NCBI GenBank assembly: GCA_003056085.1
Contig: LSNK01000003.1
Coordinates: 2,744 to 66,743 of the forward strand
Source of the DNA: Parcubacteria group bacterium M6-OD1-1
GTDB lineage: Bacteria; Patescibacteriota; Minisyncoccia; GWC2-36-17; M10-OD1-4
Direction of reading: 5' to 3'
Length of the DNA stretch: 64,000 nt
Shown: piece by piece, positions 1 to 41,914 of the stretch
How positions within the stretch are numbered: position 1 is the first letter of the stretch
Layout: every line of letters starts with the position of its first letter
Made by a program: the position numbers and the translations under genes
Notes under the pieces: generated by a model
The model's database searches: none
What the model was told of the DNA's origin: nothing
The model's input: the letters and a program-made list of their open reading frames with translations, nothing else

Positions 1-3000
1 GCAGAAGTATTTGTTGTTGTGTCTCCACTGTCTACTATTGATGTGTCTGTGTTTGCATCTGCTTCGGCATCAGTTGTTATGTTTGTGGACTCATCATCGG
101 TCGTTGTTGTACTTGTGTCCGATTCATCAGTTGTTGTCGTATCTGCCGCAGAAGCATCGTCGGTTGCAGAAGTGTCGGTTGTTGTTGTGTCTCCGCTATC
201 TGCTGTTGTGTCTGTACTTGTATCTGTACTTGTATCTGCCCCACTATTTACTGATGTATCCGTTCCACTTTCTGTTGTTTCGTCTACTCCACTGTTGTTT
301 AAATCTGTCGCCTCATTTTCGGCTTCTGTTGTTGTTCCTGTCACATCTTCATCAGGACTTAAAAATCCTATTGCAGAAGCTTCCAAAATAGACTTGAGCT
401 GGTCTTTTGTAATACAGAGATCATCTATACAAAGCTTCTTTGTTTTTACTTGGTCAACCTCTATTTGTTTTGCTGTTATCTTTCCAAGCTCATCTATGCC
501 CCAAGCGCCTGAAGCGCTAGCAAGCGCTTTAATGTTTTTAATTTCTTTATTATTTAAATTAAGCGAGTACTGCCCGATGTATGCCGTTTCCCCTTGGTCT
601 GTGTTTATCATCCAAGGATTTGCTGTATTTTCTTCTGCGATATTTTCTGAAATACTGCTATATTTGCTACTTCCTCCTACATTTGCAAACATCATTACTT
701 TTCCAATTTCAGGACTATCATAATTTTCCAAAGCAATACCAAGAACCTTTCCTGTAGAAAATTCTGAACTCAAAGCCACAGCAACTCCGGAAATACTTGA
801 AGCCGTAAGTGTATCGCCTGTTTTTATTACGCCTGAAACTTTAACAGGAATTCTACCTTGTAAAGCAACCGGCAGACCATTTGTTGTTGAATATCCAAGA
901 GTAAATCCAGGTTTTGTTGAGATGACACCTACAGCATTTTTATATTTATCATTTGCCTTAACTATTCCGAAACTATCTTTAAAATCTATTGTTGTTGAAG
1001 CAGTTAAAATGTCTTCTGTTATTGCAACAACATCACCCGCCTCAAGCCCATCCTCAAAAGCTTGATATTTCTCTGCAAGGTCAGCCTGCTGAATAGTTAA
1101 ATTATCAGCATATATTGTTCCGCCTGTTGTACCGCATGCTCCTGCAACAGTAACGCACAAGGAACCTTGAACAGATAAAGTTGAGACAGGACTTGTTGTC
1201 GCAATACCAACTTTTCCACTATCAAGTACGGTAAATAAAGTACTTGAGGCGGAGTCTACAATTTCTAAAGCAGAAACTCCAGAAGTTCCATTCCCCCAAA
1301 CCGAAAGCTTAGCATAAGGTGAAGTTGTTCCGATGCCGATGTTCCCGCTTGAAAGTGTTGCACCTGCTCCATCAAGCCCAGTACCAAAAAGGAGATTACC
1401 TATGTTTAATGTGTTTGCGCTTGATGTACTTATAGCATCTATATTGTAACCAAGAATAATATTGTTTCCTCCTATTGTTAAGTTATCTCCTGCTTGGTAA
1501 CCCAGGAGAATATTGTTGTTTCCTGTTGCTAAAGCGGAACCTGCTTGGTAACCGAGAAATACATTATTTTGAAATGTTGTATTATTCCATCCCGCTCCAA
1601 GTCCCGCTCGGTAACCTACAGCTGTATTTCCATATCCTGTATTGTTGTAACGCATAGCATTTACACCTATCGCTGTATTTTCATACCCTGAAATATTGTA
1701 ATATTGAGCAAGTCTACCCACAGCTGTATTACTATATCCTGTAGTATTATTTCGAAGAGACTGACTACCAACGGATGCATTGTCAGCTCCTGTAGTGACA
1801 TAAAGGGATTCAAAACCAATAGCTGTATTATCAGATACTGAAACAGTATAACGAAGAGCTTTATAACCTATAGCTGTATTTTGATATCCTGTGGTGTTAT
1901 AGAAAAGAGAATCCTTACCAACAGCTATATTAGAATATCCTGTTGTATTTGAGTAAAGAGCTCTATCGCCATTAGCTGCATTTTCATATCCTGTTGTATT
2001 TGAGTAAAGAGCGGTTCTACCAATAGCTGTATTCATGTATCCTGTTGTATTTGCAGTAAGGGCTTGATAACCATTGGCTGTATTTCTATATCCTGTTGTA
2101 TTTGCAGCAAGAGCTTGATAACCATTGGCTGTATTTTCATATCCCACAGTATTTAAACTAAGCGCTTGATAACCAACCGCTGTGCTGCCGTCTGTTGAAG
2201 TCGCAACATTCAACGCTTGATAACCTAAAGCAGTGTTGTAAAACCCATCTGCAAGAAGCGCAGCTCCTGCTCCACTACCAACAAGTGTTGAGAAGTTTGT
2301 TGAAGAAGCGTAGAGTATTGTGTTCCCTGCTTGTTTGTAGCCTGAGTATTGGTCTGTGTTTATAAAGCCTGCTACAGAGAGTTTTGCGTATGGAGAGGTG
2401 GTACCTATTCCCAATCTGTTGTTTGTATCATCCCAGAAAAAGTTTGAGTTGTCTTGTGCTAAGTTTGAGCCGTTTGAGAAAACTACTGAACCTGCTGTTA
2501 GTGCTGTTGCAAAACTTTCTACATTTAAAGCAGATTGGTTTACAGATAGAACTCCTGATGCTGCTTGAAGTCCTGTTCCTGTTATGTCTGTTAAGTAATC
2601 AGAGCCAAGTGTGAATGCTGTTGTTGCGTTTAACATTGGAAGTGTTGAAGTTGCTGATGTTGAGGTTGCGGTAAAGTATTCTGAAACTGTTTCACCCACT
2701 ACTGAAAGCTTTGCGTAAGGGGAGGTTGTGCCGATGCCGATATTACCGGAATTTTTAACAATAAATAAATTACCACTGTCACCGACAGCAGCAGTAGAAG
2801 AAAGCATTAGTAAATCAGTTGCTCCACCATCCGCATTTATTTCCATACGAGCACCTGGGTTAGCCTCCCCAATGCCAAAATCCCCAGCAGTTGTTAAAAA
2901 AGCTACAGGGGTATTATTTGTTACAAAATTTAAATCAACATTTGAAAATGTTCCAAAATTCAGACCGGAAAGATTTACAAAGAAACCTCCTTCAATACCT

Positions 3001-6000
3001 ATTTTATTTTCAATTGTCATTTGTGCGTTATAAGAATTAGGATTTACATATAATCCATTATTAGAATTAGTCGGAGTCTGCCCACCGCCACCAATATGCA
3101 ATTCTTTAGTAGGACTCGCAGTTCCAATTCCAACATAACCCGTTGACCTATCATACACTATCCCACCACTACCAACATTAAACCCACCCGCGAAAGTTGA
3201 AGTTGCAGTTGTACTTGTCGCAGTAAAGTATTCTGCTACAGTTTCACCTACCACGGAAAGTTTTGCGTAAGGACTTGTTGTTCCGATGCCGACGTTGCCT
3301 CCACCTGTAGCAAACCATGCGCCGCCTGATGTGGTGAGTGAAGTTGATGAAGCGTATGTGAATGAAAGTCTGTCTGCGGATGGGTTGTATGTAAATGCTG
3401 ATTCCGATGCTAAAACGTCTGCCGCTGTTGTGTATAATACTGTGTTTGATCCTCCGAATGTTGAAAGTCCTGTGCCTCCATCTGCAACGGCGATATCTGT
3501 TCCGTTCCATACGCCTGAGGTTATTGTACCGAGTGATGTGATATTTCCCTGCACTGTTGTAGGAAGAGTTGAAGATATGGATGGAACTCCTGTTCCGCTG
3601 GTTATTAAAACTCCGTCATTTCCGGTTGTTATGGAAGCAAGTGCGTCTGCCGCTGTTGTGTAAAGCAGTGTGTTTGTTCCTCCAAATGTTGTGAGTCCTG
3701 TACCTCCTCTTGAAACCGCTAATGTTCCTGTTGTATCAGATATTGCGATTGCAAGAGAACTTGTTGCCGTATCAACCCAGCTTGTTCCGTTGTATGTTAT
3801 GACGTTACCGAATGCTACTCCTGTTGTGTCTACGTCTAAAAGGTCTGAAAGATATGAAGCTCCTACTCCTGCTCCTCCACTGTCTGATGAGCATACTAAA
3901 TATCCATTTGCATCTGTTGTTATCTTTCCTCCATTTCCAAGCCCTGAACAATCTATGGCTGCTATTTGAAGTCCTCCGCTTGAGAGTTTAACTCCATTTG
4001 CAAACGTTGAGGTTGCTGTTGTTGATGTTACATTAAGAAGGTTTGTTTGGATGCCTCCTGTGAATGTTGAAGTTGCAGATGTTGTTGCTGTATAGTTTGA
4101 GGCGACTACTTCTCCGACGACGGAGAGTTTGGCGTAGGGGGATGTTGTGCCGATGCCTGTATTGCCTGTGTTGTAATAAATATTAGATCCTGATGTTGTC
4201 CATTGTGAGAATAGGTTTGTTGAACCTTCCACTAAGTTGTCTGTGTTTATTGCAAGAGAACTTGTTGCCGTATCAACCCAGTCTGAACCATCCCATGTCA
4301 GTACATTGCCATATCCTACTCCTGATGTATTTACATCACTTAAATCTGAAATTGTGGCATTAAGTGAAATGGTGCTTCCTGTTAAAGAAAGTCCTGTTCC
4401 TGTCGCAAGGTCGGTATATGGTATCGCTATTGTTGAAGATGCTGTTGCTGTCCCTGAATTTAGATAAATAAATCCTGTTGAAGCGGAGAAGTCTTGACCT
4501 GTACCTCCTCTTGAAGCTGCAAGTGTCCCGGACCATTGTGATGTAAATGTATGGGTGGCTCCTGAACTTGTTATTGTTAGTCCTATATTTGTATCACTTG
4601 ATGTTGCAAAAGTTTGAGAACCTGACAAAAGACCATTTAAAGAAGTTATCCCATCTCCTATTCCAAGACATGTTCCATCGGGTTTCGTAAAGCACCCTGC
4701 TGAAATTGAGATTCCATTTGCAAACGTTGAGGTTGCTGTTGTTGATGTTACATTAAGAAGGTTTGTTTGGATGCCTCCTGTGAATGTTGAAGTTGCGGAT
4801 GTTGTTGCTGTATAGTTTGAAGCGACTACTTCTCCGACGACGGAGAGTTTGGCGTAGGGGGAGGTTGTGCTGATGCCGACGTTGCCTGTTGTACGATATA
4901 CATTGCCGCCAGAAGCACTCCAAGTCCCGACGGATCCGCCTATAAGTGAACCATTCCAATAAAGATCACCCGATGAGTCATTATAAAGTCTATTTGTTGT
5001 TACAGAGGGTGATGTGGCGCTAAAATATATCGGACCATTAACTGATAAAACATCTGTCGGCGATGAAGTTCCAATACCAATATTACCTGAACCATCAATA
5101 ACAAATCTGTCATTTGTTCCAAGTTTGGAAGAAGAGGCAATTTTAAATGAGCCTCCGTCAGAAAAATCAGAACCTATTGACCACTTATAATCCGAAGTAC
5201 TTGTAGAAGAAAAAGTAAGAACGGCATCTGCGCTTGATGTGGCGATGGTAAATGCCGTTGATGTTGCTTGTGTAAATATTGCCGTTGAAGAAGTTGCTGA
5301 ACCTATCGGGGTTGCGTCTATGCTCCCGCTGCCTATCGTTAAACCATCAACAACATAAGAATCGATTATACAATCTGTACACCCTCCTCTTGAAGCCACC
5401 GTACTAAGATCCGATGAATTGGTTATCGTCAAACCGCTTATGGAAATATCCGTACCAGCAGCCAAACTAAGCGCGCCTGTCTCGCCCTGCAAAGAACTAA
5501 CACCGGAAGAACTGACAAAAACAGAACGCCCGGACCCACCCGAAGATGAAATGACCGGATTTGAAGCAGTTCCTGTTATGGTTATATTCGAACCTGCAGT
5601 TATTTTGTTTATTATGTTAGATGCAAAAACTTTTCCTTCTCCCGCATTGATGTCAGTGTTATTGGTTGTTATTCCTCCGAAAGCCTCCATGACACCACGC
5701 GCGGTAATTTTGTTTCCAACATCAAGACTTCCAGTTATAGCCGCGCCTCCTCCTAAGCTAAGACTTCCTGATCCTGCAATATTCCTGCCAACCGTAATAT
5801 TTTTTGAAAAAACACTATTACCTGAAACATTAAGATCTAAGAGCGCAGAAAGATTTCTTGCTGTAAATGACCCTCTCACTGTTCCCGTCCCTTCAACCGT
5901 TATAGATCTCCCTATATTGGCGGAACCTCCGGTAATGAGTGATCCTTGAGAATTTACATTACCTGAAATTGAAAGACCACTGCCAATATCAACACCTGCG

Positions 6001-10289: not shown

Positions 10290-11728
10290 ATTTTTTCTAA
10301 AATTTCTGTCTTCGTTTCAATATGTTTAATAAACTCATCTAAAGATATTTCTTCTTTTGCAAGTTTTCTGGTGTCGTTAAAATTTGGATCTTCTCTAAGT
10401 GATTCAATTAATATTTTTTTATATTTATCTAAAAATACTTCTTCTTTATCTAATAAAAAAGGAATGAAAGCCAAGGAAAGCAGCATTATTTGAACATTTG
10501 ATAAAACTTCATCAAAAGGATTTTGTCTTAACAACTCTTTTAAAAGTGAGCCTTGGTGTAAAATTTTCTGAGTTCTGCTGCTTACTTGCGACCCGAACTG
10601 GCTATATTCTTTTTGTCTTTCATATTCTGAAAGAAGAACCAAAACACGGTTTGCTAATTGTCTTTGTAAAATAGTTTGAGTATGACTTCCCACACGTGTT
10701 ACCGACTGCTCTACACTAATAGATGGATAATGTCCTTGTGCGCGCAATGCTGAAGAAAAAGAAAAATGACCGTCAGTTGCTGACATGATATTAGTAGGAA
10801 TCAAGTCTGTGCTGCTCTTTATACCTATTTCAAGAACAGGTAAAAGAGTAATAGAGCCACCTCCATATTTGTCATTGAAATGCCCGGAACGCTCCATAAG
10901 ATGAGCATGCTGATAAAACATATCTCCAGGATATGATTCACGACCCGGTAAACGTTCTTCAAGCAATGCTATTTCACGAACATATTTTGCATGTGTGCTT
11001 AAATCATCCAAAATAAGCAAAACATTTTTTCCTTGCTTGGAAAAGTGCTCGGCTATTGAAAATGCCACGGATGGTGCTATGGAAATAAGAGATGGCAAAT
11101 CACTTGAAAGAGCTCCTAAAACAATTGTATTCTTACCGCCATTTTTCTCAAATATACTTGAAGCAATTCTACCAACGGCATCAAGAGATTTGCCGATAGC
11201 CGCGTAGATGCAAACTGTATCCGTATCCTTTTGATTAATCACAGCATCTTTTAAAAATGAGGTTTTCCCGCTTCTTGGGGGTCCAAACACAAGTTGTCTT
11301 TGACCCATTCCAAGTGGAAATAAAACATCAACAAATGTAAGCCCTGTCAAAAACTGATCTTTTATTTCTTCTCTTGAACTAATTCCTGAGGCTATCACAT
11401 TAAGCTCAAGAGAGGTATTGTTTTCCGGGAAGCCTCCTTTGCCATCAATGCTTTTCCCAAGAGCATTGATAATGCGACCAAATAGATGATCTCCAAAAGA
11501 AAATATTTTCTCGCTTCCGCGCAGAAAAAAACGATCTCCCGGTTTTTTAAAAACAGAATCCAGCATAAGAGCTTTCACATGATCTTTTTCAAGTGAAATT
11601 ACAAGGGCCTTATTCCCATCTTCATCTCTTAAAATATTATTTATTTTTGCAGACGGCAAACCCTCAAGCGCAATCAAATATCTTTTTGCGCTAACCACAA
11701 GCCCAACTTCATTTTCATTTATTTCCAT
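10280..11728 (-). CDS. atpA: F-type ATP synthase alpha subunit
   Basis: GQRQLVFGPPRSGKTSFLKDAVINQK (P-loop), IYAAIGKSLDAVGRI, 482 aa. Confidence 0.9.
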
Positions 11729-12294
11729 TATTTTGATTGATTAAATTGATTGATCATACTAATAATTTCTTCTTCTCTTTTTTTAACAGAATTTTTAAAA
11801 GAAAAATTATAATAAATACTATTCCACACAAAAGCGCAACCCGCGACAATAGAAGAATCAACTTCTACATCCATAAATATATTTTCATTTATATTTTTGC
11901 GAAACCACTCCCCCAAATGAGAAATCTCGTCATCTGAGAACTTAACGGGCAAGTAAATTTTTATATTTGGAAGAAGATTAATATCGTTGGTTATTTCTTT
12001 TAAAATATACTGAAAGTTCTCTGTATTGAATTTAGTATAAAAATCATCTCCGTAACTCAAAAGATCATTGATTATTTTTTCAGATTCTCCACCCTCTTTT
12101 TCTTTTAAAAAATAACTCAATAGTTCTTTTGTTGCTTGAGTTTTATTTAAAGAAAAAAATGTATATTCAAAAAATTCCTTAAGCAAAGCCACTTTATGGT
12201 AAAAACCTGACTTTGTGTATGTATTGTTTATAATTTTATATGTTTGATTATTCATTTGAATTTTTGCTATCAAAAATATTTTCTTTTTTTGCAT
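11728..12294 (-). CDS. atpH: F-type ATP synthase delta (OSCP) subunit
   Basis: 188 aa, operon position between b and alpha; C-terminal VDSSIVAGCAFVWNSIYY resembles the OSCP C-terminus. Confidence 0.55.
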   Translation of the reverse strand: MQKKKIFLIAKIQMNNQTYKIINNTYTKSGFYHKVALLKEFFEYTFFSLNKTQATKELLSYFLKEKEGGESEKIINDLLSYGDDFYTKFNTENFQYILKEITNDINLLPNIKIYLPVKFSDDEISHLGEWFRKNINENIFMDVEVDSSIVAGCAFVWNSIYYNFSFKNSVKKREEEIISMINQFNQSK

Positions 12295-12967
12295 CTTCTA
12301 AAGCCTTATAAACAAGATCTGTATGATCTGACATTGATAATTCTTTCTGAAGCGCAATGGAAGCGGTTTTTTCAACTAAAGCTACTATTTGCTTATCAAC
12401 AAAATCCATTCGTTTTTTTTGATAATTATCAATTATCTTTTTTATTTCTTCAAGCTCTCCATTTAAATATTTATCTACTTTAGTCGCGCTTTCTTTTTCA
12501 AATTCTGAAAGTGTTTCTTTTATTTCATCCATTATACTATCCATTTTCTTTTCTGCTGTTTCTTTGTTTTCCTCAACGCGTTTTTGAAAAGAAAGTGAAA
12601 ATTTAGAATACATTTCTTCCGCTTTTTTTGCTGATTGTGAAATTGAGTCTTCTATTTCTTGAGTTAATTTATCAAGATGTTTTTTGTAGGATGATTCTAT
12701 TTTTTTGTTTGTAATTTTTCCATTTGAAATAAGTCTTATACTTTCAAGCTCAGCTTCAACAAGTATTTTTTGCGCCTCTTTTTGAGCATTTCCTATAATT
12801 TTTTGGGACTTGCTCTTTGCCTTTTTTATCATACGGCCATAAATAGGATAAGTAAGATCTCTTATTTGTCCATTGCTTTTAAAGTACATAAACAAAAAAA
12901 CAAGAACTAAAAAGGCCAACAAAGACACAAGACCAATAAGTAAATAAAAAATTAAAAAATTTGTCAT
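12248..12967 (-). CDS. atpF: F-type ATP synthase b subunit (long form)
   Basis: N-terminal TM helix (LIFYLLIGLVSLLAFLVLVFLF) followed by a long charged coiled-coil; operon position. Confidence 0.6.
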   Translation of the reverse strand: MTNFLIFYLLIGLVSLLAFLVLVFLFMYFKSNGQIRDLTYPIYGRMIKKAKSKSQKIIGNAQKEAQKILVEAELESIRLISNGKITNKKIESSYKKHLDKLTQEIEDSISQSAKKAEEMYSKFSLSFQKRVEENKETAEKKMDSIMDEIKETLSEFEKESATKVDKYLNGELEEIKKIIDNYQKKRMDFVDKQIVALVEKTASIALQKELSMSDHTDLVYKALEDAKKENIFDSKNSNE

Positions 12968-12978
12968 AAAAAAAATTA

Positions 12979-13854
12979 TTAAAATATTACTATTATCACA
13001 CTTATAAATATTCCCACAACGCCTATCATTAAAGCTACAATTGAATTTAAGATAATAACGGACCAGACAGATGATTTTGCAAGCGGATTTCTTCCTATTG
13101 AGATAATGCTTCTGTCTACTGCGGACATAAAATTTTTAAAAGCTGCAAATATAGCACCAAATGCGATAAGAGCTGCAATAATATATTTTATGATATTAAC
13201 CTTTGTTTCATCTTCAATTCCTCCAAATATTCCCACCTTACCGCCTTCGCTGTTACTTACCAATTCGTTTAAAAAAGGAATGCTTTTATCCGTTGATGAA
13301 TCCGAAGCGGCGATACCAACATCAAGAAGCACTTTTATGCTTCCTGTCACGATATTTTTTCCATCTATGATTTCTGTTTTTACTCCTTCTGTCTTTTCAT
13401 CAAAAGGCTCGAGTGCAACTCCTAATATGTACGAATCTTTTTTAACAACCTTCTGCCCCTTCCCCGGGACATCAGAAGATGTAATGTTGTCTCCTGGCTG
13501 TATGGGACCTCCTTCCAATGTTACATTTACCAATACTTGGCCGGACCTTACTACTGGAATCTTATTTGTTTCCGTCCTTAAAACCAAAACAGGGTTTTCT
13601 ACGGTAATTCCAAAAATATCCTCATCCCCAACCTTGCGAGACAAACTATAGACTCCATTTTTTTTATCATAGGAAATTATATCTCCGAAAAGAACATTAT
13701 CATCGGTGATGGTATATGTTAAAGCAACATTAAGGTCACTTTTTTGAGCATGCGAAAAAGGAACAAACAATATAACGCTTGTTGCTAAAACTAATAATAC
13801 TGTTAAATTAATCAAAATGCGAAACTGCATGTATAAAAATAAAAAACTTGGCAA
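12979..13854 (-). CDS. Secreted/periplasmic domain fused to a C-terminal c-subunit-like two-helix hairpin. It occupies the atpE/atpB position of the operon but lacks the conserved carboxylate.
   Basis: Signal peptide (SHA|QK). An approximately 190-aa soluble domain is followed by IIAALIAFGAIFAAFKNFMSAVDRSIISIGRNPLAKSSVWSVIILNSIVALMIGVVGIF. This is a G/A-rich helix, an RNP loop (compare ARQPE), and a second helix with no Asp/Glu. Confidence 0.4.
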   Translation of the reverse strand: MPSFLFLYMQFRILINLTVLLVLATSVILFVPFSHAQKSDLNVALTYTITDDNVLFGDIISYDKKNGVYSLSRKVGDEDIFGITVENPVLVLRTETNKIPVVRSGQVLVNVTLEGGPIQPGDNITSSDVPGKGQKVVKKDSYILGVALEPFDEKTEGVKTEIIDGKNIVTGSIKVLLDVGIAASDSSTDKSIPFLNELVSNSEGGKVGIFGGIEDETKVNIIKYIIAALIAFGAIFAAFKNFMSAVDRSIISIGRNPLAKSSVWSVIILNSIVALMIGVVGIFISVIIVIF

Positions 13855-16524: not shown

Positions 16525-16575
16525 AATGGCCATGTGGCGGAGTGGTTACGCAGCGGTTTGCCCCGCTCAAAGGTC
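16525..16575 (+). other. Pseudo-tRNA: duplicated 5' portion of tRNA-Cys (acceptor 5' strand, D-arm, degenerate anticodon arm) lacking a T-arm
   Basis: 16532-16560 is identical (29/29) to 16581-16609 inside the tRNA-Cys gene. Confidence 0.7.
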
Positions 16576-16649
16576 TGGCGCTGTGGCGGAGTGGTTACGC
16601 AGCGGTTTGCAAAACCGTGCACACCGGTTCAATTCCGGTCAGCGCCTCC
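16576..16649 (+). tRNA. tRNA-Cys (GCA), CCA encoded
   Basis: Acceptor GGCGCTG/CAGCGCC, D-arm GCGGAGTGGTTACGC, anticodon loop TTGCAAA, T-arm ACCGGTTCAATTCCGGT, discriminator T + CCA. Confidence 0.85.
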
Positions 16650-16721
16650 AAGCCAGACCTTTGTGTGGGATTGCAATTTGTCATCAAATTAAAGATTTAT
16701 TTTTTTAATTTTGAATTTTTA

Positions 16722-16808
16722 TGCCCGGGTGGTGAAATTGGTATACACGAGAGACTTAAAATCTCTTGGTCGCAAGACCGTGCCGGTTCAAGTCCGGCTC
16801 CGGGCACC
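16722..16808 (+). tRNA. tRNA-Leu (TAA), class II with long variable arm, CCA encoded
   Basis: Acceptor GCCCGGG/TCCGGGC, anticodon loop CTTAAAA, variable arm TGGTCGCAAGACCGT, T-arm GCCGGTTCAAGTCCGGC, A + CCA. Confidence 0.85.
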
Positions 16809-16845
16809 ACAAAAAACTCCTGATTTTAATCAGGAGTTTTTTGAT
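16805..16845. repeat. 41-bp perfect direct repeat copy 1 (overlaps tRNA-Leu 3' end and a bidirectional terminator hairpin)
   Basis: accacaaaaaactcctgattttaatcaggagttttttgatt identical to 20054-20094. Confidence 0.9.
16811..16845. terminator. Bidirectional rho-independent terminator (ctcctgatt/aatcaggag stem flanked by A-run and T-run) serving tRNA-Leu (+) and nrdG (-)
   Basis: 9-bp stem, 4-nt loop, A6 upstream and T6 downstream. Confidence 0.7.
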
Positions 16846-16868
16846 TTTAAAAACAGCAAAATTAAAAA

Positions 16869-17558
16869 TTACCGCACATAACAATTTTTAACATATTTTT
16901 TTAATTCTTCTGCTAACTCACTTAACTCATTATCCGAATATGAAGATTCTTTTTTTAAAGCAGGTTCAATTAATTTTGTCGGAATAAATTTCTGTAAGAA
17001 ATAATTTTCCGCACCTTTGATTTCTTGCGCAATTTTTCTTAAATCATCTTTACTTAGAATAGACTTTACAATAGTTGTTCTAAACTCATATCCAACACTT
17101 GAGCTCATTAAAAGACTTATACTTTTTTTTAATTTTTCAACCGGGATTTGCCACCCTATGACTTTTGAATATTTCTTCAGCGGCGCCTTGATATCCATAG
17201 CAACATAATCAACTAATTTTCTTTTAATAAAGTTTTCTAAAACCTCCGGCCTGCTGCCGTTACTGTCTAATTTTACCAAAAAACCCATTGCTTTTATGTT
17301 TTCTATCATTTCAGATAAATCCGCATGCTGTGTTGGTTCACCTCCGGTAATGCACACCGCATCAAGTTTCCCGCGCCTATTATTTAAAAAATCATAAACT
17401 TCTGAAAGCGAAATTTCCGCGGTGTATCTTTCAGGAATAACCAATTCCGGATTATGGCAATACCTACAACGAAAATTACAACCAATCGTAAAAATTATTG
17501 CTGAAGTTTTACCCGGATAATCTATCAAAGAAAATTTTTGCAATCCACCAATAATCAT
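16869..17558 (-). CDS. nrdG: Anaerobic ribonucleoside-triphosphate reductase activating protein (radical SAM)
   Basis: CNFRCRYCHNPEL radical-SAM cluster motif; 229 aa; overlaps nrdD stop by 4 bp. Confidence 0.85.
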   Translation of the reverse strand: MIIGGLQKFSLIDYPGKTSAIIFTIGCNFRCRYCHNPELVIPERYTAEISLSEVYDFLNNRRGKLDAVCITGGEPTQHADLSEMIENIKAMGFLVKLDSNGSRPEVLENFIKRKLVDYVAMDIKAPLKKYSKVIGWQIPVEKLKKSISLLMSSSVGYEFRTTIVKSILSKDDLRKIAQEIKGAENYFLQKFIPTKLIEPALKKESSYSDNELSELAEELKKYVKNCYVR

Positions 17559-19645
17559 ACCGTTGTTTTATATGTTTCTCGTATATCAAATTCAGCTTTT
17601 TTACCGTCATTCCACTGCATTGTTGGGCGCAAGTAACCAACGATTCTTGAATACACCTCGCACGAGCTCTGACATTTGTCACAAACTTTTATCTCTCCTG
17701 AAATATATCCATGATTTTTACAAACGCTAAAGGTTGGTGTTAAAGTAAAATAAGGCAACTCATAATTTTCACATATTTTTCTCACTAAATTTTTAACACT
17801 TTCTCCGTCTCTTATCATTTCACCAAGAAAAAAGTGTAAAACCGTACCTCCGGTATATTTTGTCTGCAAACTATCTTGCAACTCTAAGGCCTCAAAAATA
17901 TCTTCTGTAAAATTAACAGGTAAATGTGTTGAATTGGTGTAAAATGGACTTTCTACGTCATCGCCTTTTCCATTGGCAAAGTTTGCATTTTCATATTTTT
18001 TTTGATCAAGAAGGGCCAGTCTAAATGATGTCCCTTCTGCCGGAGTTGCTTCAAGATTATAATTATTGCCGGTTTCTTTTTGAAAAGAAACCATTGTGTT
18101 ACGCATATAATCAAGCACTTTTTCTGCAAATTCTTTGCCTTTTGTTGTGGTTATTGTTTCTCCAAAAAGATTTTGCGTTGCTTCGCTCATCCCTACAAGA
18201 CCAATAGTAGAAAAATGATTTTCCCAATATTTCCCATAAGAAGATTTTATTTTTCTTAAATAAAATTTAGTATATGGATATAGTCCGCTATCAGTAAACC
18301 GTTCTAATACTTTTCTTTTTATTTCCAAACTTTCTTTAGCTAAAATCATTAATTCTTTCAATTTATTAAAAAATTCTTTCTTATTTTTTGCATCAAGAGC
18401 AATACGCGGTAAATTTATAGTTACAACCCCGATTGATCCTGTTAAAGGATTTGCACCAAAAAGCCCTCCACCGCGTTTTTGTAATTGTCTGTTATCTATT
18501 CTCAATCTACAACACATTGAGCGGGCATCATCAGGATCCATATCGGAGTTGATAAAATTTGAAAAATAGGGTAAACCATATTTCCCTGTTGCCTGCCATA
18601 ATAATTTAATGGAATCATTATCCCAATTAAAATCTTTTGTAATATTGTAAGTTGGAATTGGAAATGTAAAAACGCGGCCACTGGCATCTCCCTCCGACAT
18701 TACTTCTAAAAATGCTTCATTAAACATATCCATCTCTTTTTGAAATTCATGATATGTTTCTTTTTGCGGCTTGCCGCCGACTATAACCGACTGCTTTGCA
18801 TAATGCTTTGGAACCGTTAAATCTAAAGTGACATTTGTAAACGGCGTCTGAAAACCAACACGAGTTGGAACGTTAATATTAAAAATAAATTCTTGAAGAG
18901 CTTGCTTGACTTCTTTGTACCTTAATTTATCATATCTTATAAACGGAGCCAGCAAAGTGTCAAAATTACTGAATGCCTGGGCTCCCGCGGCTTCACCCTG
19001 TAAAGTATAGAAAAAATTAACAACCTGCCCAAGAGCAGACCGAAAATGCTTTGGAGGCTTGCTTGACACTTTGCCCTCAACTCCCTTAAAACCTTCCGCC
19101 AATAAGTCAAAGAGATCCCAGCCGACACAATAAACTGAAAGCAAATTTAAATCATGAATATGAAAATCACCATTTATATGAGCATTCTTGCTATTATCGG
19201 GATAAATTTTATTTAACCAATAATTCTTGCTTATTTCACTGGAAATATAATTATTTAAGCCCTGTAATGAATAGGACATATTGCTGTTTTCCTTAACCTG
19301 CCAATCAGTTTTGTGTAAATACTGCTCAACAAAATTATTATTAAAAGAATTATTAATATCTCTTAATTGTTTGTGTTGTTCTCTGTATAAAATATAAGCC
19401 TTGGCGGTTTTTTTAAATTTTGAACGCAATAAAACATTCTCGACTATATCTTGAATTTGTTCAACTTTAGGAATTTTGTCTTTTATGGTTTTATCAGCGC
19501 AATTTACAACTTTTTTTGTCAGTTCATTTGCTTCTTTAGAGCCAAATTCATCGGTTGCCTTCCCGGCCTTTATGATTGCAATAACAACTTTTTTTATATT
19601 AAAAGACACTGTCCTGCCGCTTCTTTTTTTTATTTGCTTATACAT
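17555..19645 (-). CDS. nrdD: Anaerobic ribonucleoside-triphosphate reductase, class III
   Basis: 696 aa; N-terminal ATP-cone-like region; C-terminal glycyl-radical motif SRIVGYLRP and Cys-rich Zn ribbon (CDKCQSSC). Confidence 0.88.
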   Translation of the reverse strand: MYKQIKKRSGRTVSFNIKKVVIAIIKAGKATDEFGSKEANELTKKVVNCADKTIKDKIPKVEQIQDIVENVLLRSKFKKTAKAYILYREQHKQLRDINNSFNNNFVEQYLHKTDWQVKENSNMSYSLQGLNNYISSEISKNYWLNKIYPDNSKNAHINGDFHIHDLNLLSVYCVGWDLFDLLAEGFKGVEGKVSSKPPKHFRSALGQVVNFFYTLQGEAAGAQAFSNFDTLLAPFIRYDKLRYKEVKQALQEFIFNINVPTRVGFQTPFTNVTLDLTVPKHYAKQSVIVGGKPQKETYHEFQKEMDMFNEAFLEVMSEGDASGRVFTFPIPTYNITKDFNWDNDSIKLLWQATGKYGLPYFSNFINSDMDPDDARSMCCRLRIDNRQLQKRGGGLFGANPLTGSIGVVTINLPRIALDAKNKKEFFNKLKELMILAKESLEIKRKVLERFTDSGLYPYTKFYLRKIKSSYGKYWENHFSTIGLVGMSEATQNLFGETITTTKGKEFAEKVLDYMRNTMVSFQKETGNNYNLEATPAEGTSFRLALLDQKKYENANFANGKGDDVESPFYTNSTHLPVNFTEDIFEALELQDSLQTKYTGGTVLHFFLGEMIRDGESVKNLVRKICENYELPYFTLTPTFSVCKNHGYISGEIKVCDKCQSSCEVYSRIVGYLRPTMQWNDGKKAEFDIRETYKTTV

Positions 19646-19963
19646 AAGACTTTTTTTGAATTAATTATTAAAAAAACTTGGCTAAAACGCCAAGCATCAA
19701 ACAATATCCAATATAGTCTTGAGACTTAAACGCGAGCCGAGAGCGGACTAATGCAGTCAAATTGTATGAGACCGGACTTTAACCGTTGCGCGACAGTGAG
19801 GGAATCACACCCTACTTCATCATACAAACCGCTATCTATAATTTTGTAAATACATAATAGCACAAAAAAATAATTTTCCAAAATCTTATATTTTTTGGTT
19901 TTTTGCCTTTTTTAAAAATTAAATTAAAATATTTCCAAATTTTTTCAATTAAATCCCTTCCTT

Positions 19964-20007
19964 TTAACGTAGCATATGGTGACGGTCGTCACCATATGCT
20001 ACGTTAA
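19964..20007. repeat. Perfect 20-bp-stem hairpin with GGTC tetraloop (ttaacgtagcatatggtgac-ggtc-gtcaccatatgctacgttaa)
   Basis: Base-by-base complementarity checked; followed by T-run; lies between nrdD start and the 3D-domain gene end. Confidence 0.85.
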
Positions 20008-20053
20008 TTTTTTAATTAGAATATTAGGGAAGAAATTATTTTGATATCAAAAA

Positions 20054-20094
20054 ACCACAAAAAACTCCTGATTTTAATCAGGAGTTTTTTGATT
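20054..20094. repeat. 41-bp perfect direct repeat copy 2 (terminator hairpin downstream of 20116..20607)
   Basis: Identical to 16805-16845. Confidence 0.9.
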
Positions 20095-20115: not shown

Positions 20116-20607
20116 TTACTCGGCGATTTCCACAATGGTATATTTCATCCCAAAACTTAAAGCCTCAGATCTTGATTCTATCCAAATATCTATCCTGTCC
20201 TGAAACCTTTTGTTCATTCTATCTTCTACTGTAAAAACTTTATCTCCAAAAAGTTCCGGAAATCTTACTTTTGTACCCAAGGGTAAGAAGTTTGCAGCTA
20301 TAGCGCCGTCATAAACATAATTTCCGCTTGCCATTATAAATGGCGTATCATCTGTTTGCCCTACCGTTGAAGAATATGCCGTTATTTTAGATTTTCCAAT
20401 GTTTTTCCATATGACAGGAGAACTTTCGCCTAAAAATGAATCATTCCCCGTGATAATTACTGCACTTTTTTCAATAGCCGTACTTGCAACTTTGCTCTCT
20501 TGTTGTAAATAAGCATCTGCTTCAATACTTTTATTTGCTGCGGCAAATAGATTTAATGGGCCAACTAAAATACTCGCAAGAACAACCCAACCAAATAATA
20601 TCTTCAT
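20116..20607 (-). CDS. Secreted 3D-domain protein (MltA-like/YuiC-like cell-wall-binding or lytic domain)
   Basis: Signal peptide; GQTDDTPFIMASG ... RIDIWIESRSEALSFGMKYTIVEI matches the 3D-domain C-terminal signature (IDxxxxSxxEAxxxG). Confidence 0.6.
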   Translation of the reverse strand: MKILFGWVVLASILVGPLNLFAAANKSIEADAYLQQESKVASTAIEKSAVIITGNDSFLGESSPVIWKNIGKSKITAYSSTVGQTDDTPFIMASGNYVYDGAIAANFLPLGTKVRFPELFGDKVFTVEDRMNKRFQDRIDIWIESRSEALSFGMKYTIVEIAE

Positions 20608-21585: not shown

Positions 21586-22329
21586 CTATACTTTCATAGA
21601 CTTTACTAAATATTTAACTTTTTTTTCATCTAATTCTGTAAAACTTCTGCTTATCCCGGAGGCAACCAAAAAACAATCCACAAGATCTACGTATTGACTG
21701 ATATTGTCAGCTGTTATGCCGCTTGCGACTGCGATTGGAAAATTCCCAACTGCATCTCGTATAATTTTGAGTTTTTTTGGTTCAGCTGGCATACCAGTCC
21801 CATCACCGCTTGTTGTTATGACATCCACAAACTCCGTTGCAAGCTTTGAAACTCGAGCAAGATCCAGTACTGGCTTTTGGTATTTGAAGGCTACTCCTCC
21901 AAAATAAAGACCATTCCAATCTTGTCTTTTTTCTAGCTCTTTTAGATTTTCTTTAGCATTAGATGCAGAATCCAAAAAACAGTTAATTCCTGCATTATCC
22001 ACCCATAAGCCTGATGCTCCAGACGGAACTTGTCTGATTGCATTTTTTGAATAGAGATCAAGACAATTTAAACCTATCCACCAATTAGGATAAGATTGAC
22101 GAATTATCTGATAAATACTCAATAATTTAACCGCAGACATTCTATGATTAATTAAAAAAACTCCATCCACTTCGGACTCTCTTGCTATCTTAACATTTCT
22201 TAAAGTCTGTTTTTGTGACTCTGCATGAATAACAACAATAAGACTGTTTTTGTTTTTAAACACTTCTTTATAACAAGACATATCGGTCTCCTTTTTAAAG
22301 TAAAAAGAACAATACCCACAACATAGCAA
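21586..22329 (-). CDS. BtpA/SgcQ-family TIM-barrel protein (start possibly at ATG 22281)
   Basis: LIVVIHAES...GVFLIN..., GGVAFKYQKPV, IAVASGITADNISQYVDLVDCFLVASGISR resemble the BtpA N- and C-terminal motifs. Confidence 0.4.
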   Translation of the reverse strand: MLCCGYCSFYFKKETDMSCYKEVFKNKNSLIVVIHAESQKQTLRNVKIARESEVDGVFLINHRMSAVKLLSIYQIIRQSYPNWWIGLNCLDLYSKNAIRQVPSGASGLWVDNAGINCFLDSASNAKENLKELEKRQDWNGLYFGGVAFKYQKPVLDLARVSKLATEFVDVITTSGDGTGMPAEPKKLKIIRDAVGNFPIAVASGITADNISQYVDLVDCFLVASGISRSFTELDEKKVKYLVKSMKV

Positions 22330-22765: not shown

Positions 22766-22924
22766 AAAAAGTATTAATCTACAATATATCACACAAAATC
22801 TCATTATTCAATACAAAATTCTGAATAACTCAACGCGTTGAGTTATTCAGAATTTTGTATATCTTTTTTGAAATACGAGAATAATAAGTATGGTGCGTTT
22901 ATTGTACCAAACTCGCACTTACTT

Positions 22925-34078: not shown

Positions 34079-34145
34079 AAAAACTAATTTAAAATGAGAA
34101 ATAAATAAACTATTACTTTAATAAAAAAGCTAAATCTGTCTAATT

Positions 34146-34225
34146 TTGGTGCGCCCAAAAGGACTCGAACCTGGGACCGCCGAGATATATCAGTGATATA
34201 ATTCTTCATTTGCACAAAATGCAAA
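34146..34225 (-). other. tRNA-like 3' fragment. A T-arm-like atatctcggcggtcccaggttcgagtcc is followed by a ...tgggcgcacca 3' end. It is preceded by an 8-bp hairpin catttgca-ttttg-tgcaaatg and has no cognate 5' half.
   Basis: Shares atatctcggcggtccc.ggttc.agtcc with the adjacent intact tRNA(UAU). Confidence 0.5.
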
Positions 34226-34231
34226 TGCCCG

Positions 34232-34304
34232 TCCACCCTCCTGGACTTGAACCAGGGACCGCCGAGATATAAGCTCGGTGCTCTACCGACTGAGCTAAGG
34301 GTGG
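34232..34304 (-). tRNA. tRNA with anticodon UAU (tRNA-Ile2-like, decoding AUA); C1:G72, discriminator A, no CCA
   Basis: Reverse complement CCACCCTTAGCTCAGTCGGTAGAGCACCGAGCTTATATCTCGGCGGTCCCTGGTTCAAGTCCAGGAGGGTGGA; anticodon stem CCGAG/CTCGG, loop CTTATAT. Confidence 0.65.
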
Positions 34305-37772: not shown

Positions 37773-37974
37773 TACTTTAATTATTTCCCTGATTTATTAA
37801 TATTTAATAAAAAAGTAAAGTATTTAAATCAGTAAAAATACTTTATTTATAAAGGGTACGATAACTTATTTTTAATGCATTGGCAATATTGACTTTTTTA
37901 TTAAAGTAGTGTATAATTACATTAATTAAAATGCACATTGAAAATCTAATATTATACATGAGGTATAAAACAAT

Positions 37975-38890
37975 GAATATCATTGAAAGTTTAATCTCTA
38001 ACTTTACGTTAGAAGGAATAATCACATTTCTGGTATTTTTATTGATTATCACCACCTTAGCATACCCAGTGATAAGATATTGCGTAAGCCATATCAACGA
38101 CAATGAAATGGCTTTAGCAAATTGGTTATTTGGATTTTACGGAAATGTAAAAGTTGGCCCCAGAGCTGTTCTTAGACTTCCCGGGTCAGAGTTTACTATA
38201 CACAGCACCGAGCCAAGAAAAGATAAGGCGGTGATTGAAAAAGTCTTTAAATCAGAGCCTGATCCAGGAGAATCCGGCTTTACAATTGAAGCTACGCTTT
38301 CATTTATTCTTTCTTTAAGTAAAGATGCTGATTGTGAAGGCTTTAAAGAATTCCATAGAATTCAAGAATCTTTGGAAAATGGAGCTTTTGTCTACATTGA
38401 GGCATGGATAGACAATCAAATAAGAAATTACAGGGGAAATGGAGAAATTGAAAATCCAAAAAATATAAAAAATGTTCAAGATCAGGTTGAAGAATCAGCA
38501 AGAACTGAACTTCAAAGACACATTGATGATTTGTCCAAGAAATCAGTTGTTATATTTGACTTCGGACTAAAACTTGACCTGGAGCAAGACGTAAGAGATG
38601 CAATGAAGCGCTCCGGCATTCAAGAATTAGACAATAAAGCATATGCGGCTAAATTCAAAGAGATTAAAAAAATAACGGCAGAATTGGTTGGAGATGACAT
38701 TAAACTTCCAAACCAACTTGCTGTTCTTATAGCTCTTAAAATTGCAAAAGAGCCCGGAGTGGACCTTTCAAAACAAATCCTTGATATTCAAGGCTTGGAA
38801 AACTTTAGGGGACTTATTGACACTCATGCAATTGAAAAAATAGCTCAAATGGCAACTAATTTCAGCAAGAACAAAAGAGGTGACAAATAA
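37975..38890 (+). CDS. Membrane-anchored SPFH/band-7-like protein (start may be 37931)
   Basis: N-terminal TM. GNVKVGPRAVLRLPGSEF and FGLKLDLEQDVRDAMKRSGIQELDNKAYAAKFKEI resemble the stomatin/HflC SPFH core and its C-terminal helix. Confidence 0.4.
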
Positions 38891-39516
38891 TGAATGCCAC
38901 TCAACTTCAAATACTAAAATTATTCAGAACCATAATAATTTTTAGCATTATTGCTGTAGTTATCCTTTTCTCGTTTTCTAAAATCTCAACTGAAAAAGAA
39001 GATAAGGAATCTCAAATAAAGCCCCGCACGGCAACCAGCAACATCACATGGAATTGCGCCGATAAGGACGGCAAAATTATTGCTATGATGGCATACGGAC
39101 AAAGCATAAAGATTACTCATAAAAAATTTCCGGCAAGGAAAAAAAATGAGTGCTCTTACGCTTATCCGGACAACTTCCGGGTAAACAATACGCCTTATTC
39201 TTCAAAGGTGTACGGCTTTCCCAAAAACAAGCTGCCAAAAAGCACAAGGGAATACATGAACAGCATTCCTTTCCCACAGTTCAAACCATGGACTATTGTG
39301 CTTGTTTTAACCAATAATCCAGACAATCCTCAAAACAACTACATAAAGGCTGCAGCATTTCAGTACGAAGGGCAATCCTTCTCTTTTGAAAATAAAACTT
39401 CAAAAGACAAACCTTTATATGTGGTTGCAATGTTTAACTATCCAGACACTATGTTCAATGAACAGATAGGCTACGGTGGATACACTATAACCTTAGGAGT
39501 TAAGCAATCAACTTAA
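38890..39516 (+). CDS. Membrane-anchored hypothetical protein
   Basis: ATGA-coupled to upstream gene; N-terminal TM; no recognisable motifs. Confidence 0.5.
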   Translation: MNATQLQILKLFRTIIIFSIIAVVILFSFSKISTEKEDKESQIKPRTATSNITWNCADKDGKIIAMMAYGQSIKITHKKFPARKKNECSYAYPDNFRVNNTPYSSKVYGFPKNKLPKSTREYMNSIPFPQFKPWTIVLVLTNNPDNPQNNYIKAAAFQYEGQSFSFENKTSKDKPLYVVAMFNYPDTMFNEQIGYGGYTITLGVKQST

Positions 39517-39589: not shown

Positions 39590-39976
39590 TTAATACGTCC
39601 ACACACCGGCGATTGATTCTGAAATTGAAACGATAGAAAAAGACAAAATAGCTACAACGACCCCAACTACAACATAAATAAGCACATCTTTTGCTTTTTT
39701 TAATTTAGCCTCGTCTCCGCTGGCTGTTATAAATAAGATTCCTGAATAAAGACCAAAAACCACAGCAAGTAAAGCGACAAACCACGCAAACCAGTTAACT
39801 AATGATACAAATATATCTGCAATACCATAGCTGCCGGTATCAAAATTACCTTGTCTTCCTATTTGATCGCCTGTATATATCTCACCAATCCCTCCTTGCG
39901 GATAATCTTGAGCAAAAGAAACCGTCGGAAACAAAATAAAAACTAACAAAAAAACAGTTGCAATAATTTTTTTCAT
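39590..39976 (-). CDS. TrbC/VirB2-like pilin-family small secreted membrane protein (copy 1)
   Basis: Signal peptide (SFA|QD), Gly-rich spacer, then LVNWFAWFVALLAVVFGLYSGILFITASGDEAKLKKAKDVLIYVVVGVVVAILSFSIVSISESIAG. This is two hydrophobic helices separated by a short charged loop. Confidence 0.6.
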   Translation of the reverse strand: MKKIIATVFLLVFILFPTVSFAQDYPQGGIGEIYTGDQIGRQGNFDTGSYGIADIFVSLVNWFAWFVALLAVVFGLYSGILFITASGDEAKLKKAKDVLIYVVVGVVVAILSFSIVSISESIAGVWTY

Positions 39977-40030
39977 TTTTATAAAAATAAGTAATTATTC
40001 TTATATTATATCAATTCAAATTTAAAAAAA

Positions 40031-40056
40031 CAACCCTGTCAAAAAGACAGAGTTGT
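40031..40056. terminator. Bidirectional terminator hairpin between the pilin-like genes (caaccctgtc-aaaaa-gacagagttg flanked by A7/T5)
   Basis: Inverted repeat with one mismatch. Confidence 0.55.
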
Positions 40057-40080
40057 TTTTGAATGATTTTCTATTCAGTT

Positions 40081-40485
40081 TTACACTCCGGCAATTGATC
40101 TTGAGATTGAAACAATTGAGAATGCTAAAATAGCAACTACGATACCAACGATTGCATAAAGCAAAATGTTTTTTGCTTTTGTAACTTTTTCGTCGTCTCC
40201 CCCAGCTGTAATAAATAAAACTCCTGAATAAAGACCGAAAAGCACAGCAACTAAAGCAACAAACCATGCTACCCAGTTAATTAATCCTAATATCAAGTTT
40301 ACTAATTCTCCTGTTCCCGTTACAGCTCCTGTACTTCCGATATTAACACCTCCTGTAGGCGCTGTTCCAATACCTCCTGAAGGCGCTTGAGCTCCAACCA
40401 TCATAGGTACTGCCACGAAAGCAACTGCAACCATTGCCACCACAACAAATGCAATGGCTGACGGTAATGTTAAAGATAATTTCAT
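40081..40485 (-). CDS. TrbC/VirB2-like pilin-family protein (copy 2)
   Basis: Signal peptide, G/T/A-rich spacer, then LINWVAWFVALVAVLFGLYSGVLFITAGGDDEKVTKAKNILLYAIVGIVVAILAFSIVSISRSIAG (about 75% identical to the copy 1 core). Confidence 0.6.
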   Translation of the reverse strand: MKLSLTLPSAIAFVVVAMVAVAFVAVPMMVGAQAPSGGIGTAPTGGVNIGSTGAVTGTGELVNLILGLINWVAWFVALVAVLFGLYSGVLFITAGGDDEKVTKAKNILLYAIVGIVVAILAFSIVSISRSIAGV

Positions 40486-40701
40486 ATTTTTATTTTTATT
40501 TTAAAAAATTGTTAGATTCGACCTTTTTTGTTTTTAAAACTTATACACTAATTATACAATAAATTCTCTATTTGTGTCTACTAAACTGTTGATAACAAAA
40601 CAAGAATAAGAAATCAGAAATTAAGCATTTACTGTTTACTGTTTAACTTTATGTTTTATTCTTAATTCTTTTTTATATTTTATATTCTTCTCTTTCTACC
40701 T

Positions 40702-41828: not shown

Positions 41829-41914
41829 ACTCTGTAAATTCTAAAATTTGATTTGATTTTTATTTATTCTTTAACAAAAAGATTATACTAAAATCTATAT
41901 TCTAAACTCAAGCC

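Follow-up and report, generated by a model that had tools for sequence, protein, structure and literature searches.

We find that an operon for anaerobic ribonucleotide reduction in Parcubacteria group bacterium M6-OD1-1 is bracketed by two identical copies of a 41-nt repeat, the first of which begins in the last nucleotides of a tRNA gene. The stretch of DNA analysed (64,000 nucleotides of contig LSNK01000003.1, hereafter the window) is ordinary chromosome of a bacterium of the Patescibacteria (candidate phyla radiation). In it nrdD and nrdG (together nrdDG), the genes of a class III ribonucleotide reductase and its activase, stand between tRNA-Leu(UAA) and an oppositely oriented gene for a 163-aa protein whose homologues go by the name of 3D-domain proteins in their source records (hereafter the 3D gene). 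We consider it likely that nrdDG is an insertion, and that the event duplicated the native terminator of this spacer together with four nucleotides of the tRNA gene; this degree of confidence covers an inserted cassette plus a duplicated native terminator and does not extend to the enzymology.

A probable terminator repeated on both sides of nrdDG

The 41-mer (ACCACAAAAAACTCCTGATTTTAATCAGGAGTTTTTTGATT) has two perfect copies on the forward strand of the 64-kb window (Table 1). There is no third copy across the 64 kb, even when up to three mismatches are allowed, and the number expected by chance is 0 (0 matches in 100 dinucleotide-preserving shuffles); with one mismatch allowed, the repeat reaches 44 nt. 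An earlier note on this DNA had located the second copy exactly and the first one nucleotide off. It had also read the first copy as starting with the ACCA end of tRNA-Leu, and this holds: because of where ARAGORN puts the tRNA gene, copy 1 opens with the discriminator A followed by the CCA. Thus 4 of the 41 nucleotides, the last four of tRNA-Leu, belong to the tRNA gene and the other 37 to a terminator.

The hairpin within the repeat has a perfect 15-bp stem and a 4-nt loop with A6 and T6 at its sides. It folds at about -20 kcal/mol on either strand (copy 1, -20.0 kcal/mol, z = -8.5), a terminator scan flags it in both directions, and both copies score as terminators. With a stable hairpin, an A-tract before it, a T-tract after it and a place between convergent genes, the unit is predicted to be an intrinsic bidirectional terminator. 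The position of copy 1 would suit termination of the convergent tRNA-Leu and nrdG transcripts. No hairpin of nrdG's own lies in the 22 nt from the nrdG stop codon to copy 1, and copy 1 is therefore the sole candidate terminator for this gene. Copy 2, in turn, is placed where it would terminate the 3D gene and shield the nrdD promoter from read-through. The earlier note had offered as an alternative that the repeat is a bidirectional terminator cassette put to use more than once. A hairpin terminator does stand at both places that need one, but it appears to have been doubled by the insertion and not independently reused, and with only two copies it is, within the 64 kb at least, not a genome-wide cassette.

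A second assembly bears on the repeat as well. The Logan assembly of run SRR14803397 contains a 2,986-bp contig (L036; the loci compared are given by such numbers) that is 100% identical to window positions 16817-19802; its end at 16817 leaves 30 nt of copy 1 inside the contig. If k is 31 for Logan, as we assume, these 30 nt equal k-1. A repeat present twice would make a de Bruijn graph branch at just such a point, which suggests that the repeat is also present in this independent assembly.

The same site in relatives

We now consider the site in related genomes. Searching with IF-2, one genome per species, gave relatives at most 50% identical. Eight loci (L001, L007, L012, L013, L014, L015, L023 and L030, of which L014 is a complete genome) share the order DUF4446, IF-2, RbfA, tRNA-Cys, tRNA-Leu(UAA), and in each the stop codon of an opposite-strand 3D gene lies roughly 30-100 nt past tRNA-Leu(UAA). 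None of the eight has nrdDG between tRNA-Leu and the 3D gene, and most of them carry a lineage-specific hairpin with A and T runs right behind the tRNA. Homologues of the 3D gene adjoin tRNA-Leu(TAA) in these eight loci and in L043; judging from this gene order, the 3D gene is the ancestral convergent neighbour of tRNA-Leu(UAA). The 163-aa protein of the window itself has a 100% match in the homology search, and an exact look-up was empty.

The closest relative found, L043, is an 884-bp contig from a marine metagenome, with a 3D protein 82% identical in amino acids and DNA 81% identical. Its order is 3D gene, 74-nt spacer, tRNA-Leu(UAA), and the spacer holds a single ACCA and a terminator and no nrdDG. 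The window aligns colinearly with L043 once positions 16847-20094 are left out. Between the two hairpins there are two compensatory pair changes and one loop change, and 36 of the 41 positions are identical. The colinear alignment and the compensatory changes indicate that the 41-mer is the native terminator of the spacer, structurally conserved and ancestrally single-copy. The arrangement that the earlier note had envisaged for an inserted element, in which tRNA-Leu is directly followed by a homologue of the gene at 20116..20607 without nrdDG, is thus present in L043 and in the eight loci above.

In all of more than 10 relatives (38-82% protein identity) the site between tRNA-Leu and the 3D gene is empty or filled with unrelated cargo. 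The insert is absent from the orthologous site of related genomes, which is one of the criteria of the Islander definition. A sister strain, represented by short contigs, has an NrdD 99.6% identical and a 3D protein 99.4% identical, and the insertion is probably common to the species. Scanning metagenome contigs with the 3' 25-mer of tRNA-Leu gave 120 contigs from unrelated taxa (GC 0.30-0.70); because these carry no homologue of a flanking gene, the scan is uninformative on relatives.

The operon and its leader

The coordinates of the features are collected in Table 1.

Table 1. Features of the tRNA-Leu(UAA)/3D gene region (window positions).
Feature	Position	Strand	Basis
tRNA-Leu(UAA), CCA encoded (anticodon TAA in DNA)	16723..16809	+	ARAGORN; Rfam tRNA 56 bits
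Repeat copy 1, 41 nt: ACCA + 34-nt hairpin (16810-16843) + ATT	16806..16846	+	
Inserted segment, 3,207 bp (insert + one repeat = 3,248 bp)	16847..20053	.	absent from orthologous site in relatives
nrdG, radical-SAM activase of class III ribonucleotide reductase, 229 aa	16869..17558	-	Pfam Radical_SAM 1.2e-20, Fer4_12
nrdD, anaerobic ribonucleoside-triphosphate reductase with N-terminal ATP-cone, 696 aa	17555..19645	-	Pfam
Terminator-like hairpin GCTTGGCGTTTTAGCCAAGT then TTTTTTT, between aptamer and nrdD start	19676..19695	-	
AdoCbl-II (cobalamin) riboswitch aptamer in the nrdD 5' leader	19759..19837	-	Rfam RF01689
Sigma-70-like promoter (TTGGAA, 16 nt, TG-TATTAT) directly upstream of the riboswitch	19854..19881	-	consensus scan only
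Perfect palindrome, 21-nt arms + 2-nt centre (44 bp), T-run after it on the + strand	19964..20007	.	fold -32.6 kcal/mol
Repeat copy 2, 41 nt, same as copy 1 including ACCA	20054..20094	+	
3D gene, 163 aa, homologues named 3D-domain proteins by their sources	20116..20607	-	homologue comparison

As the earlier note had it, nrdG and nrdD are the only genes of the interval (Pfam Radical_SAM and NRDD). NrdD matches the NRDD profile (PF13597) over positions 1-562 of 562 at 3.2e-203 and the ATP-cone (PF03477) at 6.6e-20; the gene that follows and overlaps it carries PF04055 and PF13353. The two genes together make a class III nrdDG operon. NrdG is 68-79% identical to the NrdG encoded beside NrdD at other loci.

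What the earlier note had described as a GC-rich structured segment (19731-19835) is indeed structured, and is more exactly an AdoCbl-II riboswitch. The aptamer scores 40.3 bits against a gathering score of 36.5, over model positions 1-81 of 81, and the same aptamer stands at the same position in L037, L039 and L040 (38.5-43.4 bits). A terminator-like hairpin lies 64 nt downstream of it and is probably the expression platform of the riboswitch, judging from its place in the leader. A cobalamin riboswitch in the leader of nrdDG is known from Propionibacterium acnes; its proposed role there is to lower expression of the B12-independent reductases when B12 permits the use of NrdJ (PMC3848588). 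The missing case among the other nrdDG contexts is L038, which has no AdoCbl-II riboswitch.

The palindrome upstream of the promoter, given as 20 bp in the earlier note, is perfect as claimed, with arms that are in fact 21 nt long. It lies within the insert, beyond the part that is homologous to other nrdDG loci, and is probably a terminator brought along from the donor context. We rejected by eye the idea that it is an NrdR operator. Equally long, unrelated perfect palindromes are common terminators in these genomes: comparable ones occur at 22812-22859 of the window, at 3168-3210 of L039 and at 12907-12944 of L040, and hairpins that are both perfect and very long seem to be what usually serves as a terminator here and in related genomes. 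The one at 22812-22859 is a 48-bp perfect palindrome between tRNA-Val(TAC) and tRNA-Leu(GAG).

Probable sources of nrdDG

NrdD has hundreds of homologues that are 70-84% identical. The closest (84%) share a single context, found in L037, L039 and L170-L172, which runs glutaredoxin, tRNA-Phe, palindrome, riboswitch, nrdDG, HSP20, PrsW. Elsewhere nrdDG lies between SIMPL/tRNA-Phe and KilA-N/EF-Tu (L038) or between tRNA-Ser/TfoX and a Wzy cluster (L040), and outside nrdD and nrdG, L038 and L039 have nothing in common. The DNA similarity of the window to other nrdDG loci is limited to 16866-19884, that is, to riboswitch, nrdD and nrdG, and none of the fetched loci has a homologue of the two stretches of the insert that are peculiar to the window (19838-20053 and the 22 nt between nrdG and copy 1). 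No repeats bracket nrdDG in L037-L040, where we searched for them. In three of these other contexts a tRNA gene lies 0.3-0.85 kb upstream of nrdD (L038 9647-10001, Phe; L039 3072-3474, Phe; L040 9068-10001, Ser).

On the contigs that bear these homologues, S1, SBP and ATP-synthase subunits are 32-46% identical as against 81-84% for NrdD, whereas the syntenic relative L047 (IF-2 73%, AtpA 75%) is without nrdDG at the tRNA-Leu site. This contrast of identity and synteny would fit a horizontal spread of the nrdDG module, with other low-GC Patescibacteria as the probable donors. There is no sign of a phage origin: the best viral NrdD homologue is 64% identical and ranks below the bacterial matches, and neither the repeat hairpin nor the palindrome occurs in viral contigs.

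Other insertions at tRNA-Leu(UAA)

The spacer behind tRNA-Leu(UAA) has been filled more than once. L047 has a 2.6-kb insert (10532-13167) between the 3D gene and tRNA-Leu(UAA), flanked by a 43-nt repeat with one mismatch (about 47 nt with one indel) that is made of the (C)ACCA end of tRNA-Leu and a different palindromic terminator. The inverted ends of this insert, about 200-330 bp, are rich in GC hairpins. Its cargo is unrelated to nrdDG and consists of a met-zincin-like protein (a weak Pfam signal) and two unknowns; it includes no recombinase, transposase or Cas1, and PADLOC and PHROGs were empty. L020 carries at 12001-12166 a 28-bp direct repeat (TTCGAGTCCCACCCGCGGCACAATAAAA) around a 110-bp GC-rich remnant; this repeat spans from the T-loop of tRNA-Leu to 7 nt beyond the 3' end and looks like a textbook integrase (att) scar at the same tRNA. 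The same spacer holds a LAGLIDADG homing-endonuclease gene in L031 (3153-3923) and a 168-aa ORF (open reading frame) of no assigned family in L002 (12280-12786), the latter without a PADLOC or PHROGs match. Rfam found nothing in the inverted ends of L047 or in the inserts of L002, L005, L020 and L031.

Among the Patescibacteria loci compared, a repeat across the tRNA 3' end occurs at 3 of 24 tRNA-Leu(TAA) genes (two from an automated scan, L047 by manual inspection) and at 0 of 157 other tRNAs, a difference for which Fisher's p = 0.002 is inflated, the window having been picked for such a repeat. The spacer between tRNA-Leu(UAA) and the 3D gene looks like an insertion hot spot.

How the repeat may have arisen

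We picture the history of the locus as follows. A self-contained class III reductase operon, comprising promoter, AdoCbl-II riboswitch with its terminator, nrdD and nrdG, would have been gained horizontally and would have entered the short stretch in which tRNA-Leu(UAA) and the 3D gene converge. The insertion would have doubled the native 41-bp unit (ACCA, the 34-bp terminator hairpin and 3 nt), leaving one copy on each side. Today copy 1 would end the transcripts of tRNA-Leu and nrdG, copy 2 would end that of the 3D gene and guard the nrdD promoter, and the riboswitch would turn nrdDG off when adenosylcobalamin is present.

For the repeat itself, our leading candidate is a one-step duplication of the target by an enzyme acting in trans, either through breaks staggered on the two sides of the hairpin and then filled in, or through a replication template switch at the hairpin; we put target duplication by one of these routes at somewhat under an even chance. 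The perfect identity of 41 nt over a fast-evolving hairpin fits it better than it fits a foreign att site. The borders of the repeat are nearly symmetric about the hairpin (4 nt, 34-nt palindrome, 3 nt), and L047 offers a parallel in which the hairpin has another sequence.

Recombination in trans with a circular cassette that already bore the same 41-mer is possible but doubtful. We are equally hesitant about its specific form as the remnant of a tRNA-targeting integrative element, in which the attP of the circular cassette would have been the tRNA-Leu 3' end plus terminator, the tyrosine integrase would be lost or encoded elsewhere, and the two repeats would be attL and attR. For the common core of a phage/tRNA system, the 41-43 bp of the repeats here are a usual size. 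The repeat begins inside the tRNA, the 28-bp scar of L020 lies at the same tRNA, and the window has tRNA-fragment scars of its own that are broken at anticodon loops (16528-16561 and 34139-34200, described below). The 41-mer would moreover be the sole terminator of a circular form of the cassette, and a regenerated tRNA gene with a displaced fragment is the principle by which Islander finds such elements (PMC4383910). Against this, only 4 nt of the tRNA gene are doubled, and the other 37 form a lineage-specific hairpin in which, over the whole repeat, 5 of 41 positions differ even in the closest relative; a foreign attP is not expected to match such a hairpin perfectly. No integrase was found in the 64 kb (58 ORFs scanned), and homologous nrdDG modules elsewhere are without such flanks. 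The decayed island proposed in the earlier note accordingly survives in part: insertion at a tRNA, a repeat that brackets the insert exactly, relatives with an empty site and the lack of an integrase among the ORFs scanned all stand, but a typical tRNA att core would not consist, as this repeat does, of 4 nt of tRNA and 37 nt of native terminator.

An insertion directed by the hairpin with a long target-site duplication seems to us unlikely. Nicks would fall just outside the palindrome or cruciform, the incoming DNA would be joined there, and repair would copy the hairpin, in the manner of repeat duplication in CRISPR adaptation or of target duplication by a casposase. The near-symmetric repeat (34-nt palindrome with 4 nt and 3 nt beside it) and its perfect identity suit this, and L047 repeats the geometry with another hairpin sequence and has transposon-like inverted ends of about 200-330 bp. 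The tally of 3/24 against 0/157 (p = 0.002) points the same way, subject to the caveat of window selection. The window, though, is without terminal inverted repeats; neither the ORFs scanned in the window nor the cargo of L047 include a transposase or Cas1; and no transposase is known to us that duplicates 41-48 bp. The examples number two only, and in L047 the palindrome makes direct and inverted readings of the repeat inseparable.

More speculative again, and in our estimate improbable, is that the hairpin just after tRNA-Leu(UAA) is recognised by its structure and position and not by its sequence, through an undescribed insertion mechanism of the Patescibacteria. Such a mechanism would cut a few nucleotides outside the palindrome on each strand, insert a ready-to-express cassette, and duplicate the whole terminator together with the CCA end of the tRNA, much like CRISPR repeat duplication on a larger scale. 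The equal repeat geometry in the window and in L047, despite unrelated hairpins and cargo, would be explained by it.

Several points weigh against an insertion that duplicated its target. Among the 58 largest ORFs of the window, which include all within 8 kb of the nrdDG module, Pfam scans found no recombinase, transposase or Cas1; a Phage_integrase domain is present in 0 of the 58, and IntI and Xer were likewise not found in the window. Hairpin itself aside, no terminal inverted repeats link the ends of the insert at 16847 and 20053, and to our knowledge no enzyme makes a 41-bp target duplication. The ends of the insert show an apparent resemblance to the hairpin (ATCAAAAAAC, TTTTGAT), but it is not significant (p > 0.1), and we dropped the idea that they hold further, decayed copies of it. 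The composition of nrdDG is that of the host: GC3 is 0.265 for both genes against 0.242 +/- 0.035, the codon-usage distance is in range and there is no GC-skew anomaly, so that the departure in codon usage, GC3 or skew which the earlier note had suggested looking for does not appear. Transfer is for this reason argued from the synteny and identity contrasts and not from composition, and the identity contrast is itself weakened by the fact that NrdD is intrinsically very conserved. Finally, the place beside a tRNA may mirror selection and not targeting, because compact genomes offer few insertion-tolerant places. One other lineage-specific insertion of the window is a BtpA-like gene (21586-22329, minus strand) between tRNA-Gly and a VTT-domain gene; L047, L048 and L049 do not have it there, and it is flanked by two unrelated terminators with no direct repeat.

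To the remaining explanations together, ancestral presence and assembly artefact, we assign little probability. It is very improbable that nrdDG is ancestral at the site, deleted between the repeats in relatives and its terminators kept identical by gene conversion: 41-bp direct repeats do allow an exact deletion that gives an empty site of the L043 type, the composition is host-like and the sister strain holds both genes, but every one of the more than 10 relatives is empty or has unrelated cargo, the nearest NrdD homologues are all in other contexts, and a second ACCA-bearing copy still requires a duplication event. Just as improbable is an assembly artefact, made from an empty site and a separate 3.25-kb molecule or from a misjoined foreign segment sharing the 41-mer. 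In its favour, and a further point against the insertion, the de Bruijn graph at k <= 41 is the same for the integrated form as for an empty site plus a 3.25-kb circle, and short contigs of other assemblies (2,986, 2,878 and 599 bp) all break near the repeat; yet common assemblers use k > 41, the 82-kb source contig is colinear with relatives on both sides, a 3.25-kb circle without a replication gene is unlikely to persist, and the composition of nrdDG matches the host.

Comparison with known systems

An inserted cassette with a duplicated native terminator resembles several known systems without matching any of them. Islander defines a tRNA-gene island by a regenerated tRNA gene and a displaced direct-orientation fragment at its ends, with a tyrosine integrase inside (PMC4383910). 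Like genomic islands at tRNA 3' ends, and like integrase-less elements of the CIME type, the locus has an accessory module, a repeat overlapping a tRNA, absence in relatives and repeated use of the site. It differs from them in having no integrase, in its size of only 3.2 kb, in a composition that is not foreign, and in an identity block that is 4 nt of tRNA plus 37 nt of native terminator and not a tRNA fragment; what the distal copy holds of the tRNA gene is ACCA (4 nt), the other 37 nt being terminator.

Casposons are reported to use the 3' ends of tRNA-Leu or other genes. With them, and with CRISPR spacer acquisition (both Cas1-family), the locus shares the doubling of a unit of about 30-40 bp, palindromic in part, that adjoins a fixed 'leader'; in our locus the end of the tRNA has this role. 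Unlike these it has no Cas1 or PolB, a 3.2-kb insert and no terminal inverted repeats, and casposon duplications are about 14-15 bp. Integron cassettes and pdif modules are alike in being small gene units between identical palindromic sites that can be recombined in trans; here the unit has its own promoter and riboswitch, the window has no IntI or Xer, and the hairpin is the site's native terminator. We ruled out an integron cassette, since the hairpin (CAAAAAACTCCTGAT/ATCAGGAGTTTTTTG), as read from the sequence, lacks the attC cores RYYYAAC and GTTRRRY, a promoter-like site and a riboswitch are present, and there is no IntI. A transposon with terminal inverted repeats was set aside as well, there being no inverted repeats and no transposase in the Pfam scans; the target is duplicated over 41 bp, far above the lengths we know for such transposons.

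The operon itself is closest to the nrdDG of P. acnes (PMC3848588), where again a B12 riboswitch leads a B12-independent reductase operon and repression is expected with B12. Here the riboswitch is of the AdoCbl-II variant (RF01689), the host belongs to the Patescibacteria, and the whole regulated unit would have moved as a cassette. Cargo and regulation are thus of known kinds (class III reductase, B12 riboswitch), and what is new is that the flanking repeat is a duplicated native terminator.

Other features of the window

The window's other genes include those for ATP synthase, a short IF-2, RbfA, L19, several tRNA synthetases, FtsH, S1, GyrA and type IV secretion pilins. Two places carry broken tRNA genes. 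The 5' half of a tRNA-Cys, up to the anticodon and with another acceptor stem, lies at 16528-16561 (plus strand), 16 nt upstream of the intact tRNA-Cys (16577-16650), which itself stands between 9-bp inverted repeats (caaaggtct / agacctttg). In L043, at about 700-750, only the 3' half of tRNA-Cys, from the anticodon on, adjoins tRNA-Leu. These halves point to the anticodon loop of tRNA-Cys as a place of earlier recombination in this clade. At 34139-34200 (minus strand), about 30 nt after tRNA-Ile(TAT) (34231-34304), there is a displaced tRNA 3' half that runs from the anticodon loop to GCGCACCA and has a different acceptor stem; by its appearance it is the classical mark of an old anticodon-loop integration whose element is almost gone.

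Nowhere else in the window do GC3 and codon usage deviate as far as in two adjacent ORFs of 319 and 208 aa (37931-39516, plus strand; GC3 0.29 and 0.40). The two show no Pfam or PHROG match, adjoin the type IV secretion pilin cluster (39590-45490) and may be foreign. Dense, diverged direct repeats fill 1300-4900; their period is 51 nt at about 1438-2238, and units of 100-200 nt extend to about 4900. They probably make up a large gene for a repetitive surface protein, cut off by the start of the window. A 206-aa protein encoded at 52771-53391 (minus strand) has the PaaX central Cas2-like domain (PF20803, 2.7e-10) and a weak CRISPR_Cas2 match; no CRISPR array was noticed in passing near it.

Implications

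Patescibacteria rely on other organisms and keep tiny genomes, and little is understood of how metabolic genes enter these. At the locus studied here such a gain is cleanly resolved: both of its junctions are known, a relative preserves the empty site, and the cargo, an enzyme for making DNA precursors without oxygen, carries its own regulation and is predicted to be switched by vitamin B12. It indicates that a complete unit of promoter, riboswitch and operon can enter a spacer of about 58 nt and leave the neighbouring genes undisturbed, because the terminator was duplicated along the way. Insertions seem to recur between tRNA-Leu(UAA) and the 3D gene, a spacer that could be surveyed across the phylum. 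If it is true that a dedicated enzyme made the terminator duplication, this would be a new integration chemistry; if there was none, the locus would still be useful to have on record, as a gene gain next to a tRNA in which no integrase is present.

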